From a bacterium (lineage in GTDB: Bacteria; Zhuqueibacterota; Zhuqueibacteria; Residuimicrobiales; Krinioviventaceae): a stretch of 64,000 nucleotides of DNA. The notes below the pieces were generated by a model. That model saw only the letters and a program-made list of their open reading frames with translations, was not told where the DNA came from and did no database searches. The DNA is taken from positions 1,120,001 through 1,184,000 of the forward strand of contig CAXXMD010000003.1 in NCBI GenBank assembly GCA_963675755.2, given 5' to 3'. A program made the translations under genes and the position numbers. Below, piece after piece: positions 27,028-31,905 of the stretch; position 1 is the stretch's first letter; every line of letters begins with the position of its first letter.

Positions 27028-28671
27028 CTATTTTTCAGAACGCAGAATATCTTCCAGTGGAATACGCTGAAAAACAAGATCCGCGTGACTACTTTCATAC
27101 AAAATCCCAATGGTCTTTTCATCAACAGAGGTTATGCAGGAATAGCCCCTGCCCCGCCCTTCATCCAGCAGCAGCCAGTGTTCTTTGGGCCAGGTTTCAC
27201 AATCATCAAAACTGACTTTGAGGGTAATATGGTGCCTGCTGTTTCGGTCACTGGGATTCGAAAATAATAACAACTGCTTCTTTTCACCGTTTTCCATATA
27301 GATATGTTTGTGCAGACTTGCCATACATGCCGGTTCAATTAACGCGTTCCGTGATGTTGGGTGCTCAGTCCAGGTTTCACCCAAGTCCTTACTTACAGAT
27401 ACCACACGTCCATTATCTTTACCCATATTACCGCGGTTTCCAGGATATCGCATATTCGACATGATGGAGCCATCGGCCAATTGTACTACCATATTCTCAT
27501 TGGTTTGCGTTCCGGCGAAATTGCTGCTTTTCCAGGTCTTTCCACCATCTTTACTATATGCAATATTTGAAAACGCAGCCCCGCTCTCATCCCGCCCTTC
27601 TCCCGGGAAAACCAAAGTTCCATCATCCAGGGTAATACCGTGACCGGGAGCAACAGTCCATAGCCACCAATCTTTATCTTTGACCATGCGTGTCAGATTG
27701 CGTGACTTGCTCCAGCTCTGTCCGTCATCCGTACTTGTCGTCATTAACAACTGTGCGGTTTGCTTTATATTCCATCCCGGTTGACTGCCTTTACGCCTCC
27801 ACTGGTGCTCCCATGCTGTACTGCTTTCATCCAGACCCTTGATCCATTTCCCGGTTGTATCCAGCACTCCATACATCCATAAGCCGGCTACAAAAATTTT
27901 ATCCGAATTTTTATCCACCAAAATACAGGCATCACTGACGCCGTTATATTTTTGCGGCAGACCACCCCATTCACCCATATCCAAAACTACACGCATGGGC
28001 TCCCAAGTCTGGCCATTATCCGTACTGCGGCTGAGACCGATATCAATATCTCCCTGCAAATCCCGACTGCTCCCACGACGCGCATCATAAATTGCCAGCA
28101 ATGTGCCGCTATTGGTGGTCTCTAATCCGGGAATGCGATAGGTATGCACATTATCATCCATATGGTCACGTACGGAAACACCCAGTCGATGTTTAATTGC
28201 AACCGGATTTGAGTTCTTCCATATGGAACCATCAGCGAATTCAATCTTTTCACAAATGACATAAAAGGTTTGATGCAGATCTGTTTCAGGGTCTAGATCC
28301 ACACAAAGCAGCAGCGTATTGCTGCCGGATTGCAAGGCCAGTTCTCCGTTCATACTCACAGATCCATCAGGATTTGAAATCTCTGCAAACACTCGTGGAT
28401 TTTCAACATCTTCTAACAAGGTATCCGTGCCCAGATACCAGAGCCGGGCGGCTTGGATTTCTTTTCCCTGAATCGAAAATCGCACCGATTTTACTTTCGC
28501 TTCGGTATTAGTCTCAGGCTTAATCAATTGTATCCGGTACACCGGATTATCAGATTTATTGATCAGCACAGGCACCTGCAAAGACCTGGCGAAAACTGTA
28601 ATATCTGTATTAATAGACTGGCAGGATAATGTCAACAGCAGGATTAATAAAAGGGGGAAATACTTTTTCAT
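27028..28671 (-). CDS. Exo-alpha-sialidase, GH33 (lipoprotein)
   Basis: YRIP motif; Asp-boxes S.DNGQTW, STDDGQSW, SKDGGKTW, SKDLGETW; start moved to MKKYF (28671) with RBS. Confidence 0.92.
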   Translation of the reverse strand: MKKYFPLLLILLLTLSCQSINTDITVFARSLQVPVLINKSDNPVYRIQLIKPETNTEAKVKSVRFSIQGKEIQAARLWYLGTDTLLEDVENPRVFAEISNPDGSVSMNGELALQSGSNTLLLCVDLDPETDLHQTFYVICEKIEFADGSIWKNSNPVAIKHRLGVSVRDHMDDNVHTYRIPGLETTNSGTLLAIYDARRGSSRDLQGDIDIGLSRSTDNGQTWEPMRVVLDMGEWGGLPQKYNGVSDACILVDKNSDKIFVAGLWMYGVLDTTGKWIKGLDESSTAWEHQWRRKGSQPGWNIKQTAQLLMTTSTDDGQSWSKSRNLTRMVKDKDWWLWTVAPGHGITLDDGTLVFPGEGRDESGAAFSNIAYSKDGGKTWKSSNFAGTQTNENMVVQLADGSIMSNMRYPGNRGNMGKDNGRVVSVSKDLGETWTEHPTSRNALIEPACMASLHKHIYMENGEKKQLLLFSNPSDRNSRHHITLKVSFDDCETWPKEHWLLLDEGRGRGYSCITSVDEKTIGILYESSHADLVFQRIPLEDILRSEK

Positions 28672-28689
28672 AGAATCCTCAATATTTAA

Positions 28690-28870
28690 ACATATAACAA
28701 GCACAAAGAAAAACAAAATCTTTTTATTTATAAATCAGTTTAATCAACTTTTGTTTAAATACGTTTTTCACATGATTTGAAAAAATGACAACCATGAAAT
28801 CATTATTAGAAATCAAACACCCAACCTGACTTTTTCTTTCTCTTCGTATCCTTCGTGACCTCTAGTTGTT
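28690..28870. mobile_element. Empty (ORF-less) degenerate repeat-bounded element, copy A
   Basis: Shares agaaaaacaaa, tcagtttaatcaact (15/15) and ccaacc.ga.ttt(t)ctttctcttc.t...ctt.gtg.cctcta with 30975-31107; ends in a (cttcgtg)n arm. Confidence 0.5.
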
Positions 28871-28889
28871 TTTTTCTCAACCAAATCCA

Positions 28890-28918
28890 AACCACAAAGA
28901 ACACGAAAGACACGAAGA
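28890..28918 (+). repeat. Left arm of the GxxExxY element
   Basis: accacaaagaacacgaaagacacgaag, 9-nt period. Confidence 0.85.
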
Positions 28919-28924
28919 AAAAAA

Positions 28925-29296
28925 TTATAGAACATATCTCTTAATTCCATCTTTGAGCAGTTCTACATTAAAATTTATCAACAAACCCGTAGAAATCTTG
29001 GCAAGCTTCATATACGTTAAAAGTTGAGCTTGATGAATAGGCTTTATAAAATCAACCGATTTCAATTCTATAATTAACTTATTTTTTACCAATAAATCAA
29101 TTCTAAATCCACAATCCAATTTTACACCTTTATAAATAATTGGTATGGATTTCTGAACCTCAAATGGAATTTCCGCCAGGGCAAATTCTCTGGCTAAACA
29201 TTGTTCATAGGCAGATTCAAGCAATCCCGGACCCAATGTTTTATGTACATTTATAGCACAACCAATAACCTTGTTTGACAATGAATCAAAATTCAT
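28925..29296 (-). CDS. GxxExxY protein (PD-(D/E)xK nuclease fold)
   Basis: LGPGLLESAYE; RIDLLV...IIELKS; AQLLTYMKL; GLLINF. Confidence 0.95.
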   Translation of the reverse strand: MNFDSLSNKVIGCAINVHKTLGPGLLESAYEQCLAREFALAEIPFEVQKSIPIIYKGVKLDCGFRIDLLVKNKLIIELKSVDFIKPIHQAQLLTYMKLAKISTGLLINFNVELLKDGIKRYVL

Positions 29297-29358
29297 AAAC
29301 TCCCCCTCTGAGTAATTATATTATACGATAGAAATCAAGTCTGATTGTTTTGCTTTTC

Positions 29359-29386
29359 CTTCGTGTTCTTCGTGAACTTTGTGGTT
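29359..29386 (-). repeat. Right arm of the GxxExxY element
   Basis: cttcgtgttcttcgtgaactttgtggtt; 24/28 match to the reverse complement of the left arm. Confidence 0.85.
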
Positions 29387-29405
29387 CTATAAACATTTAA
29401 TAATT

Positions 29406-29433
29406 GACCACGAAGGACACGAAAGTCACGAAG
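29406..29433 (+). repeat. Left arm of the second (cargo) element
   Basis: gaccacgaaggacacgaaagtcacgaag. Confidence 0.85.
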
Positions 29434-29440
29434 AATTCTT

Positions 29441-30121
29441 TTAAATAATTATATCAGATATGTCATAATTATAATCTTTAATCTTTATAAGATTTAAATT
29501 CCAAATAATAAATAAAACATCAAACTCAACTTTATTCCTTTTTAGTAATGTAAATAATTGTTCCATTCCTATCCTTATATCAATTGGAACGACAGGAACA
29601 TTACTATATATCAACAACCAATTGTATGTAAACAAATTATAATTCTTAAATTTTTCAGTCTTATTTATTATAGTTTCATGAATACACTTTGCCCAATCAA
29701 TTTCCGGTTGTATACCACATGAAGGCAAACCTATTAATCTTTTTTGGCTTGAATCCAAAGATTTGATTATCTCATCATTCTTTTTCGAATTATTTTTGTT
29801 ATTTAATGTAGGTTCCAAAATTCCTTGTGGATGCCTTTTCTTCAATATAGACAAAGCTCTTTTATATTGCTCTGTACTTGCTTCAGTAAATTCAATTCCA
29901 ATTGAATATCCATTAAACCTTATTTCAAAATCTGATTTGTCGTGATGAACAATTTCAAAAGGATAATTTATTATTGGACACTTTATTATATTTGCTAATA
30001 GACGTACTAATGCCCATTTTTCTACATCTTTCTTTTTGTTACCATTCTCATGGTTATGAATAAGTTTATATTTTTGAATAAATATATTCAAATCTTTATT
30101 ATTTATTAAATTGTATTCCAT
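29441..30121 (-). CDS. Very AT-rich hypothetical protein, possible PD-(D/E)xK-like fold
   Basis: 226-aa ORF; DKSDF...IGIEFTE motif; lies between repeat arms. Confidence 0.6.
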   Translation of the reverse strand: MEYNLINNKDLNIFIQKYKLIHNHENGNKKKDVEKWALVRLLANIIKCPIINYPFEIVHHDKSDFEIRFNGYSIGIEFTEASTEQYKRALSILKKRHPQGILEPTLNNKNNSKKNDEIIKSLDSSQKRLIGLPSCGIQPEIDWAKCIHETIINKTEKFKNYNLFTYNWLLIYSNVPVVPIDIRIGMEQLFTLLKRNKVEFDVLFIIWNLNLIKIKDYNYDISDIII

Positions 30122-30166
30122 TTTTAAATATATAATTTTTTATCCATAAACATTGAAAAATATTTC

Positions 30167-30194
30167 CTTCGTGGTCTTCGTGACCTCTGTGGTT
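30167..30194 (-). repeat. Right arm of the second element
   Basis: cttcgtggtcttcgtgacctctgtggtt. Confidence 0.85.
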
Positions 30195-30234
30195 ATCTTT
30201 GTTTTTTATAAAATCAAAATTTAAGCTGGAATTC

Positions 30235-30831
30235 CTATATCGAAAACACCAAACCTGTTTTGATTTTCAGAGTTGACTTTTTTTCATAATCATCTATATC
30301 ACGAACACCATATTCGGTATGAATACGAAATCCAATCGAATATTTGGAGACTTGCTTTTGAATGAGCATTGATCCCGAAATAAACCAAAAGGCTTCACCC
30401 CAATAACCATGTTCATCACTCCCGCATTTCTCTTGTGAATAGCCTAGTCCAACCTGTGGTAATCCGGTAATATCACCACTGACCGAAAATTGTTTCCCAA
30501 CCAATAATTCGTTTACATTATATGTATACAAGTAATCAACATCCCTGGTATAGTATAACTTTCCTTTCGCGTAATAATTCATAGTCGAAGCATCATGATA
30601 TGCTTTTTCTACACGGAAATGTACATCCAAGTGAGGAATATATACAGGGACTGAAAATCCGAACAAGAATGCACTGGAACCTACATCAAGCTCACAACCA
30701 GGATAAACGGTTATTGTAGGATTGGGTAAATAGCTCATTCCCATTTCAATATTTACAATTTCTGCCTTTAACGGTGAGATTAGAAATAACACAACAAAAC
30801 AACATACAACCAAAACTTTTTTTGAATACAT
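30235..30831 (-). CDS. Putative small outer-membrane beta-barrel protein
   Basis: Signal peptide (A/EIVN); amphipathic strands; C-terminal GLVFSI; paralog of 31176-31772. Confidence 0.6.
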   Translation of the reverse strand: MYSKKVLVVCCFVVLFLISPLKAEIVNIEMGMSYLPNPTITVYPGCELDVGSSAFLFGFSVPVYIPHLDVHFRVEKAYHDASTMNYYAKGKLYYTRDVDYLYTYNVNELLVGKQFSVSGDITGLPQVGLGYSQEKCGSDEHGYWGEAFWFISGSMLIQKQVSKYSIGFRIHTEYGVRDIDDYEKKSTLKIKTGLVFSI

Positions 30832-30974
30832 AACTCCCTCCTGTTTGTACTGCTTTACAATAAAGACTTAAAATTTGGTATAACAATCCCCAAGTTTTAC
30901 TATTTACTAAATATATTATATAAACGGAATGAAACCAATAAATTTTTCAAAATATCTTAAAAAGTAAATTACTT

Positions 30975-31107
30975 TTACAAAGGATACGAAAGGCATACAG
31001 AAAAACAAACTCCATTTCTTGTCTGTCAGTTTAATCAACTACTAATTAACTTTTAAGCATCCAACCAGATTTTCTTTCTCTTCATGGTCTTTGTGTCCTC
31101 TATGGTT
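30975..31107. mobile_element. Empty degenerate repeat-bounded element, copy B
   Basis: Left arm acaaaggatacgaaaggcatacagaa; right arm cttcatggtctttgtgtcctctatggtt; internal matches to copy A. Confidence 0.5.
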
Positions 31108-31113
31108 AGAAAT

Positions 31114-31156
31114 AAAAAAAGCCACAGCACTCAATTTTTAGAATACTGTGGCTTTT
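31114..31156 (-). terminator. Intrinsic terminator
   Basis: aaaaaaagccacag...ctgtggctttt. Confidence 0.75.
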
Positions 31157-31175
31157 AACGACGCTTAAAACCATA

Positions 31176-31772
31176 CTAAAACCCAAACACCAGTCCTGTT
31201 TGAACTTTGAATGTATATTCCCAATCCACATAATCCACATCTATCGCGCCCACTTGCAAATGTACTCGCAATCCTGCTGAAACAGCGCCTATTGGGACTT
31301 TATACAATAACGATCCGGAAACAAACCAATAATTCTCCTTAAAATATCCATCAGCTTCATTACCGCACTGCTCCATACTGTAACCGATACCCAACTGCGG
31401 CAGTGTTTTGATCTTTTCAAACAACATAAAAGGTCTTCCCATCAAAAGCTCTATTGCGTCATATTTAGAATTATAATCCACATCCATTTCTTTATATACG
31501 CTACCCCGGGACAGATAATCTTTTTGATAGGATTTATGAATACCCCGCTGCATCCGAATATGCGTATTAAAATAAGGAACGGGTAAAGGCACACTCAAAC
31601 CTAAAAGTATTCCACTGGACTCAATATGTACACCTCGCGTCTCTTTGAACAAACCATTGGTATTGGGCATGGTGCTCAAACCTGCTTCAAAATTGACAAT
31701 CTCTGCCTGTATGTGGGTTACGAGTGAAAAGAATATAACCGAACAGATAACGGCCGCTTTCCGTAATGTCAT
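31176..31772 (-). CDS. Putative small outer-membrane beta-barrel protein (paralog)
   Basis: Start MTLRK with aggagg RBS; shares AEIVN.E.G.S..PN, LPQ.G.GYS.E.CG, WF.SGS.L and TGLVF with 30235-30831; terminal Phe. Confidence 0.65.
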   Translation of the reverse strand: MTLRKAAVICSVIFFSLVTHIQAEIVNFEAGLSTMPNTNGLFKETRGVHIESSGILLGLSVPLPVPYFNTHIRMQRGIHKSYQKDYLSRGSVYKEMDVDYNSKYDAIELLMGRPFMLFEKIKTLPQLGIGYSMEQCGNEADGYFKENYWFVSGSLLYKVPIGAVSAGLRVHLQVGAIDVDYVDWEYTFKVQTGLVFGF

Positions 31773-31905
31773 GTTTCCTCCTGCCTTGTCTGTAATCAAA
31801 TCCGATTGGGAGCACAAAAAATGGCTCCCAATCACTCTCTCATAAATGATATATAAAATTTAGACAAGGCAAAGCGGCTATTGCTTCCCCCGGTATTAGA
31901 AAAGA

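Follow-up and report, generated by a model that had tools for sequence, protein, structure and literature searches.

We analyzed a 64,000-nt window of a bacterial genome (contig CAXXMD010000003.1 of GenBank assembly GCA_963675755.2) and the cluster of inverted-repeat elements located in it at 28690-31107. Each of the four elements that make up the cluster has an inverted arm at either end, composed of three 9-nt units around the core CACGAAG. One element (E1) encloses a gene of the GxxExxY family, one (E2) an AT-rich orphan open reading frame (ORF), and two (E0 and E3) contain no ORF (Table 1). In each arm, AACCAC precedes the three 9-nt units, whose core reads CAC(G/A)AAG. Allowing for at most two mismatches, the two-unit pattern CACGAAGNNCACGAAR matched the window 10 times, always between 28842 and 31095; the expected number of matches was 0.43, and a count of 10 was reached in 0 of 100 shuffles.

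In the sense of the GxxExxY gene, L1 is the 3′ arm and lies 2 nt past the stop codon. The repeat finder paired L1 and R1 over 33 nt with 85% complementarity (28/33) and L2 (29407-29433) and R2 (30167-30193) over 27 nt with 78%; it also returned right-arm copies of family D1 at 28832-28864 and 31070-31102. A previous reading of the window from its letters alone, below called the sequence-only reading, had described both pairs. Its placement of the GxxExxY gene between complementary arms stands, although the count is 28 of 33 and not 24 of 28, and an unrelated AT-rich ORF without a family is indeed enclosed by the second pair. The proposed spacing of about 20 nt between consecutive elements agrees with the measured gaps of 22 and 20 nt. 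The ORF-less copies said to sit on either side both exist, but the one at 30974-31107 is not adjacent, as a conserved gene (30235-30831) intervenes. In alignment, the ORF-less copies share with the GxxExxY cassette both arms and the arm-proximal part of the leader; the interior of E0 is conserved, and E0 is homologous to E3 and to two copies in the genome of a sister species. The 29-nt core of R1 is identical to arms found elsewhere in the genome, at C3:40197 and C3:42749 (the genome, G000, comprises 6.48 Mb in three contigs, and its loci are cited as C2 and C3 coordinates). R1 and L2, belonging to neighboring elements, also form an inverted repeat (I5; 78%, 21 nt between the arms).

Table 1. 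Features of the element cluster, with positions in the 64,000-nt window
Feature	Position	Strand	Remarks
ORF-less element E0	28692..28870		repeat families D1, D4, D12; no ORF of at least 60 aa
E0 degenerate left arm	28692-28728		family D4; absent from the list of the sequence-only reading
E0 right arm	28832-28867		direct-repeat family D1; terminus ctagtt in place of gtggtt
Left arm L1 of E1	28890..28922		AACCAC, three 9-nt units and A run; inverted repeat I1
GxxExxY gene, 123 aa	28925..29296	-	enclosed by L1/R1
GxxExxY leader	29297..29353	-	purine-rich ribosome-binding stretch directly before ATG
Right arm R1 of E1	29354..29386		5′ arm in gene sense; inverted repeat I1
E1-E2 spacer, 20 nt	29387..29406		R1-spacer-L2 can also fold as hairpin; inverted repeat I5
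Left arm L2 of cargo element E2	29407..29435		family D2; inverted repeat I6
Cargo ORF, 226 aa	29441..30121	-	enclosed by L2/R2
Right arm R2 of E2	30158..30194		inverted repeats I2, I6
ORF-less element E3	30974..31107		families D1, D2, D12; in both species; degenerate left arm 30974-31002 (family D2, 69%), interior, right arm 31070-31107 (family D1)

A promoter scan around the elements returned 18 promoter-like sites where 16.2 were expected, and an intrinsic-terminator scan of 28600-31250 did not call the arms, its sole terminator-like site (31117-31156, - strand) following the ORF that ends at 31176, just before E3. Between 28400 and 31400, no Rfam family reached the gathering score, and subthreshold matches to microRNA precursors reflect the hairpin shape. 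Reading the flanks by eye, with no formal scan for target-site duplications, we saw no direct repeats outside the arms, and no tyrosine-recombinase (PF00589) gene is present in the 64 kb, the nearest lying more than 500 kb away; on both counts we concur with the sequence-only reading, which had noted neither an integrase nor an obvious target-site duplication.

The protein encoded in E1 matched PF13366 (PDDEXK_3; E 5.1e-43, 146.6 bits against a cut-off of 22) and TIGR04256 (GxxExxY; E 2.8e-45, 153.4 bits against a cut-off of 35). Among 33 aligned sequences, the GxxExxY motif and catalytic residues G24, E27, Y30, D67, and K79 were invariant, and E77, Q91, and Y95 were conserved in at least 90%; the active-site motif is E...D...ExK plus Q-x3-Y. 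A sequence search against solved structures returned no match. The AlphaFold2 model (pLDDT 95.5) has an alpha-beta nuclease core, and its best Foldseek matches in the Protein Data Bank were Cas4 SSO0001 (4ic1, E 8.3e-4) and Pcal_0546 (4r5q), followed by alkaline and lambda exonucleases and the nuclease domains of AdnAB/AddAB, with Holliday-junction resolvases lower; the TM-scores of the structural matches were about 0.5. As modeled, it amounts to a minimal nuclease of the RecB/Cas4 type whose active site is intact. A dimer prediction scored 0.00 and carries no weight either way.

The ORF enclosed in E2 matched no Pfam or NCBIfam family. Across 151 genomes of the phylum, it gave weak matches only, in 2 other genomes, and its look-alikes in the ESM Atlas are unnamed hypothetical proteins. 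The GC content is 24.7% in this ORF and 31% in the GxxExxY gene, compared with 41-45% in the flanking genes (45% in the sialidase and the decarboxylase). Because of their low GC, the two cassettes look like incomers, as far as base composition suggests. The capture of foreign genes proposed by the sequence-only reading has its one basis here, in a cargo ORF that is orphan and low in GC. Two further ORFs of the neighborhood, 30235-30831 and 31176-31835, are paralogous, with about 200 aa each, signal-peptide-like N-termini, and similar C-terminal ends; both are kept in the sister genome, and neither matches a family.

As sense-strand RNA, the L1/R1 duplex has a predicted energy of -40.7 kcal/mol, compared with -14.9 +/- 3.4 when one arm is shuffled (300 shuffles), and the L2/R2 duplex -35.2 kcal/mol, compared with -16.4 +/- 3.1 (300 shuffles). 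When each element is folded whole, its two arms are paired in the minimum-energy structure.

We compared the locus with a sister species (G001; same genus, one contig), in which the flanks are about 90% identical. Absent from the sister genome is 28923-30162, a segment comprising the GxxExxY gene and R1, the spacer, and L2 with the orphan ORF; orthologs of L1 and R2 are kept. Between these lie about 125 nt that contain no ORF and are homologous to the interior of the ORF-less copies of the window. The boundary of the indel coincides with the inner edges of the arms, and the E3 copy is also present in the sister genome. The sequence-only reading had looked for precise presence or absence at the aaccac/gtggtt ends, and this expectation fails: both outer arms are kept and only the interior differs.

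In total, the two species disagree at 6 of the 8 GxxExxY loci of the genome. One shared pair of arms, at C3:1442663-1443391, encloses an intact lipoprotein-like ORF (~130 aa) in the sister; in our genome, its content is a GxxExxY gene together with a degenerate arm, a spacer, another left arm, and the remnant of a gene. The sister genome carries a different GxxExxY gene, unalignable by blastn between flanks of 90% identity, at C3:3601608-3602150; a two-unit arm remnant alone at C3:2627949-2628423; and neither of the GxxExxY genes of C2:2202318 and C2:2206603 at the orthologous place. The loci at C3:1063300 and C3:1577667 are colinear in both species. At C3:39225-42819, where a second CACGAAG cluster surrounds two secreted or lipoprotein-like ORFs, the sister has one degenerate junction compared with three junctions and two extra ORFs in our genome. 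Of the mobility claimed for the unit, its turnover between sister species is what the comparison supports. Judging from the two sequences, the arms tend to persist while their contents change; two genomes cannot separate gain from loss. Our genome has the tandem form L-gene-R-spacer-L-...-R where the sister has L-...-R. Such a tandem would be expected if a gene-R-spacer-L segment integrated at a resident left arm, and a deletion between junctions would give the same in reverse.

Three metagenome runs from one study contain the stretch, two of them in full, and these two may be the source sample; no RNA run was listed among those containing it. The contig joints seen at the arms were 29433->30167 with 12 other letters, 29433->29359 with 6 letters, and two others. 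We rejected them as excision or circle junctions: their sides measure only 20-27 nt at 85% likeness and belong to hairpins of other loci or organisms. The circle junctions or empty sites that the sequence-only reading would have sought in reads thus came down to short arm-to-arm matches of other loci. A separate repeat with no relation to the arms, ~300 bp long and MITE-like (miniature inverted-repeat transposable element) in appearance, was seen at C2:2200530-2200856 and C3:3595783-3596065; at least 10 copies, with 72-94% identity, are found in the sister genome.

To count arms across the whole genome, we used word-specific patterns for four arm families, with a block-shuffled genome as the control. 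A generic scan for periodicity plus a partner had been dropped as too noisy in an AT-rich genome (38 of 833 segments partnered), as had a loose three-unit pattern with 262 matches compared with 159 in shuffled sequence. The word-specific patterns found 182 arms, against 14 in the control: 95 of period 10, 37 of period 9, 38 of the period-7 family ACTGA, and 12 of the period-7 family AGCT. Although ORFs of at least 100 aa cover ~91% of the genome, 164 of the 182 arms lie outside them. The genome has eight PF13366 genes and two PF05635 (S23p) genes, most of which are flanked by inverted arms whose word varies from copy to copy: CACGAAG, CACGAAT, CACAGAG, CGCAGAG, and CACAGAT (period 10), with AGCTnnn (period 7) arms around one S23p gene. 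Seven of the eight GxxExxY genes have an arm within 11-87 nt; the arms of the eighth, CACAGAG/CACGGAG, escaped the strict pattern. One of the two S23p genes has an arm at a distance of 28 nt. Arms free of ORFs occur as short L-loop-R hairpins and as R-spacer-L junctions 13-35 nt apart, and arm-only and cargo-carrying copies within one arm family, as the sequence-only reading described them, were both found.

No arm was found within 4 kb of the four Y1-transposase (PF01797) genes and the four tyrosine-recombinase genes of the genome. None of the four PF00589 genes has an arm within 5 kb; the same is true for three of the four PF01797 genes, the fourth having an arm at 4.5 kb.

Arm words also appear in other settings in the genome. 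At C3:477-32583, at least 12 co-oriented paralogous genes encode proteins of ~780-810 aa with an FtsX-like permease N-terminus, and most of them are followed, a few bases after the stop codon, by a hairpin of a period-7 word (ACTGAnn or AGCTnnn); an S23p gene within AGCT period-7 arms (C3:33484-33912) stands at the end of this array. Single arm-type heptamers are expanded in microsatellite-like fashion to ~9-12 tandem units at C3:2696789-2696877, C2:1861783-1861843, and C3:3442858-3442927, which suggests that slippage acts on arm words. Two intergenic repeat families (C3:741214-743727; C3:110824-111063, 112955-113146, and 115499-115684) appear as spurious ORFs with recurring peptide strings and adjoin period-10 arms.

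We then considered a sample of 151 genomes of the phylum; its tallies take in two unpublished genomes (G105 and G148), and the locus-level claims are independent of both. PF13366 was present in 138 and PF05635 in 130 of the 151 genomes. From other genomes we took 29 GxxExxY loci, which are the best-scoring matches and not a random draw. With an inverted-repeat score of at least 12 as the threshold, flanking inverted arms were present at 21 of the 29 loci and at none of 47 displaced control positions (control maximum 11.5), and several of the remaining eight loci show the arm word at a lower score. Many of these loci are organized as hairpin-gene-hairpin and not as a single wrapping pair. Together with seven of the eight copies in our own genome, these counts uphold the claim of a recurring unit made up of the nuclease gene with its periodic arms. 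Not every member of the GxxExxY family is a cassette, however, because two of the remaining eight, the genes L036 and L039 of two genomes, are armless and overlap both neighbors by 4 nt in an apparently fixed operon. In three genomes, closely related CACAGAG-armed GxxExxY cassettes (L040, L041, and L044) occupy the same place: a membrane-fusion-like gene stops before them, an RND-pump-like (resistance-nodulation-division) gene starts after them, and hairpins abut the two genes, so that the cassette looks inserted into an operon.

The association extends to the sequence of the arms. We inferred a tree for 34 proteins, excluding L031 for its internal stop codon and L036 and L039 as armless, and assigned the arm words by eye to five classes. 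The tree groups by arm word, with 8 label changes, where 300 label shuffles averaged 18.4 and never fell below 13. The window protein belongs to a clade (Shimodaira-Hasegawa approximate likelihood-ratio test 97) with four CACGAAG-armed genes from four other genomes, and its seven paralogs are placed elsewhere in the tree with their own arm words. In that the protein clade tracks the arm word, the logic likened by the sequence-only reading to repetitive extragenic palindromes (REPs) and their associated transposases (RAYTs) finds support. Across the 151 genomes, the number of strict three-unit period-9 arms correlated with the number of GxxExxY copies (Spearman 0.50; 0.49 without G105 and G148), the median number of strict arms being 4, 3, 14, 22, and 26 for genomes with 0, 1, 2-4, 5-9, and at least 10 copies.

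The period of the arms was measured by one shared method for S23p and GxxExxY, at 29 loci from other genomes each. For S23p, 22 loci had an inverted-repeat score of at least 12 and 21 of those were clearly periodic, with period 7 in 18, period 8 in 2, and period 11 in 1. For GxxExxY, 21 loci reached the same score and 9 of those were clearly periodic, with period 9 in 8 and period 11 in 1. Words vary widely inside each set, and the period holds: it depends on the protein family, being 9 for GxxExxY and 7 for S23p. The S23p period agrees with the period-7 arms of the S23p gene in our own genome and with the 23S rRNA intervening sequence (IVS) of Coxiella, whose arm carries the heptamer GACAGAT three times in tandem; according to the available text of PMC4990558, which describes these heptamers, that element has a 28-bp terminal inverted-repeat stem and an S23p ORF in the loop. 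Outside the periodic words, 162 of 218 arm positions (74%) were complementary in 25 GxxExxY elements and 58 of 107 (54%) in 22 S23p elements, both values being biased slightly upward by the local alignment.

These results establish a discrete, heritable gene-plus-arm unit in which the arm word follows the protein clade. The founding cargo is the GxxExxY mini-nuclease, and the ORF-less and foreign-ORF copies share the same arms. Turnover between the sister species is rapid, with the interior swapped, lost, or tandemly duplicated and the arms as fixed points. As an explanation of the whole, we lean modestly toward reading the locus as a cluster of IVS-like selfish gene cassettes with an arm-matched protein. 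Each cassette is a short promoter-poor unit that runs from a 5′ arm through a leader, provided with a ribosome-binding site, and a single ORF to a 3′ arm beginning a few bases past the stop codon; the two arms, in inverted orientation, each present three copies of one 7-base word at 9-nt spacing. In a read-through transcript, the arms would pair into a stem of ~30 bp with the ORF looped out. By analogy with the S23p-carrying IVS, this stem may be a substrate of RNase III, which would make room for the cassette between host transcription units or within one. In the Coxiella IVS, the RNase III cuts have been mapped in the stem and the element is excised as RNA, as the accessible part of PMC4990558 describes. 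With the same anatomy and a stem cut of this kind in its relative, the pairing of arms in RNA, offered by the sequence-only reading as an alternative, is the claim that gained most by our analysis; whether a stem in the transcript indeed holds the ORF in its loop and is cleaved by RNase III seems to us, on this analogy, evenly poised.

At the DNA level, the arms would serve as handles for the exchange and copying of cassettes. The encoded protein would recognize its own word array; GxxExxY may cut the arms when they are single-stranded or folded into hairpins, and the repair, templated by an occupied copy, would then spread the cassette in a homing-like manner, with ORF-less and cargo copies as nonautonomous derivatives. 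Recognition of the protein's own array, with nuclease cutting that provokes repair and so spreads or swaps cassettes, is a tentative proposal that we would sooner doubt than accept. A broader version is somewhat more doubtful still: GxxExxY (period 9) and the four-helix-bundle S23p proteins (period 7) might each read their own word array within one very large, unrecognized class of selfish elements, with the 23S IVS as the special case in rRNA, the protein as a maintenance or copying factor, and the ORF-less hairpins as nonautonomous progeny.

Several observations weigh against this picture of IVS-like cassettes. The tree and correlation statistics are overstated, related genomes not being independent, and the arm-word labels were assigned by eye. 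Arms and gene also come apart: 51 strict arms stand beside 0 GxxExxY matches in one genome, and 18 genes beside 2 strict arms in another. We have no direct evidence of movement, the metagenome joints being arm matches from elsewhere. S23p shares the architecture and is not a nuclease; a nuclease therefore cannot be the general engine. The junction pairs across neighboring elements are also stable, at -30.5 (R1/L2) and -35.1 kcal/mol, and energy therefore cannot separate arms that enclose an ORF from a hairpin between ORFs; the wrapping parse is favored by isolated cassettes with one arm per side (C3:1063200/1063684) and by the empty L-loop-R hairpins. In the period-10 family of our own genome, the spacers of partner arms match at 0.23-0.29 compared with 0.35 for random pairs, and the spacer bases of the window arms pair at only 4 of 12 positions by manual count; pairing in these arms thus rests on the repeated word alone. 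The evidence on whether arms are true inverted repeats or arrays of the same word is mixed. Finally, the elements are co-oriented with both neighbors in 26 of 32 cases compared with a genome baseline of 67% (p=0.09), which is not significant, and we dropped co-orientation as support for read-through.

The same observations can be arranged differently. A pure REP/RAYT-like DNA system, in which GxxExxY mobilizes the arms, the arms are only recognition sites, and pairing in RNA is incidental, would account for a gene flanked by inverted copies of a repeat dispersed between genes, for the joint inheritance of protein clade and arm word, for the rise of the arm count with gene copy number, and for complementarity that is carried by the word and not the spacers in the period-10 family and the window arms. 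We nevertheless consider it unlikely: the architecture is shared by S23p, which is not an enzyme of such kind, arms are numerous in some genomes that lack the gene, and the 74% complementarity at variable arm positions of the 25 elements argues for real pairing. To our knowledge, moreover, no strand-transfer chemistry has been described for a 123-aa Cas4-like nuclease. The closest characterized relative, the 23S IVS, acts as RNA in the account excerpted from PMC4990558. If the arms instead served the host as intergenic hairpins, be it as RNA stabilizers, processing sites, or global-regulator sites, the small genes would be passengers. The intergenic position of 164 of the 182 arms, the many arms directly after stop codons in the array of at least 12 permeases, and the arms flanking ordinary secreted or lipoprotein genes are all in line with this, and paired tandem octa-/heptanucleotide sites are listed as predicted regulator sites in the portion of PMC2700814 at hand. 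Such a role is quite unlikely, given at least six different words in one genome, a word that goes with the lineage of the protein it encloses and not with the host, a period that follows the protein family, and the difference of 6 of 8 GxxExxY loci between sister species.

A terminal-inverted-repeat transposon or MITE of the ordinary sort, mobilized in trans by an unlinked transposase, would likewise leave inverted ends, copies free of ORFs, and a patchy distribution between species. The indels in the sister genome, however, end inside the arms and not outside, no target-site duplication was seen at the ends by eye without a formal scan, and no transposase, among PF01797 and PF00589 only, lies near any arm; each arm is, moreover, an internal word array, which is not known to be typical of such ends, and we hold this origin to be very unlikely. 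Least probable of all, and in our view nearly negligible, is integron-like capture, with the arms or arm junctions as attC-like sites of a tyrosine recombinase and an array built at a hotspot. It would fit the co-oriented array of promoter-poor ORFs, the hairpin-forming junctions of 13-35 nt, the foreign-looking cargo ORF, and the difference of whole ORF-plus-junction units between the sisters at C3:39225-42819. Single cassettes are, however, armed on both sides, where one attC would be expected, the many arm families are each tied to a protein clade, and the four PF00589 genes of the genome include none within 500 kb of the window and none with an arm within 5 kb, which also leaves the integron-like logic suggested by the sequence-only reading without its recombinase.

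PF13366 and PF05635 are two large multicopy families without known function, and for the former a table row in the excerpt of PMC3424549 gives the function as "Unknown". The gene-plus-arm unit, for which we cite the coupling of word and clade, the coupling of period and family, and the turnover between sister species, would give both families a testable substrate in their own arms. It would also explain a common class of intergenic hairpin repeats and place the rRNA IVS within a much wider family of elements; where rRNA intervening sequences with an ORF came from has stood as a question since the 1990s, and the ORF-bearing IVS has been described as a selfish element of unknown origin (both in the available part of PMC4990558). 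For annotation, many short spurious ORFs and "regulator sites" would be flagged as parts of such elements. In the literature on GxxExxY, PF13366, IVS, and octa-/nonanucleotide repeats, we found no paper tying arms to GxxExxY genes and no description of a family-specific arm period, the comparison with the Geobacter sites being made without their supplementary alignments, which may bear on the match. Already known, as far as the accessible portions of the sources tell, are the rRNA IVS with an S23p ORF and heptamers, the paired word sites of Geobacter, and heptamer arrays near stop codons. The GxxExxY and cargo cassettes point to a widespread, largely undescribed kind of selfish DNA.

Among known systems, the window protein shares the nuclease fold and the E...D...ExK motif with Cas4, RecB, and lambda exonuclease; with only 123 residues, it is without their Fe-S cluster region or extra domains. 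Integron cassettes resemble the elements in their promoter-poor co-oriented ORFs, hairpin-forming imperfect inverted repeats, and content that varies between relatives, and differ in that here no integrase or attI stands beside the array, single cassettes have arms on both sides, and many arm families are tied to clades. The arrays of Geobacter, paired tandem octa-/heptanucleotide sites read as binding sites of global regulators (PMC2700814), and the GGGNATC heptamer arrays of Xanthomonas and Nostoc (PMC4692102) consist of 4-5 tandem words of 7-8 nt and, like the arms, occur in opposite-strand pairs at variable distance, intergenic and near stop codons. In the passages available, however, they are read as regulator sites or G-quadruplexes, and that text links no enclosed gene family to them; the G-quadruplex reading of PMC4692102 was ruled out for the arms, which are without G tracts.

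The REP system, including the paired REPINs, is similar in its repeat dispersed between genes, mostly downstream of ORFs, in opposite neighbors that fold together, in inverted repeat copies flanking the gene of the presumed acting protein, and in several families per genome, as set out in the excerpted text of PMC3733652. There, a REP unit is a palindrome of 20-40 bp with a GTAG or CGTC tag, whereas the arm described here is a direct array of a 7-base word in which only arm pairs are complementary and no GTAG/CGTC tag is present; the window gene is PF13366 and not a Y1 (HUH) transposase, and cargo ORFs lie between the arms. With the 23S rRNA IVS of Coxiella and Leptospira, whose ORF is PF05635, the elements have in common a small ORF looped by a terminal inverted-repeat stem and tandem words in the arm. 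They differ from it by their position between protein-coding genes and not in the 23S rRNA gene (helix 25 or 45), by ORFs that are PF13366 or orphan and not S23p, by a word period of 9 and not 7, and by tandem clusters and ORF-less copies. The window element works most like an IVS and its logic is closest to REP/RAYT, and it is a strict member of neither.

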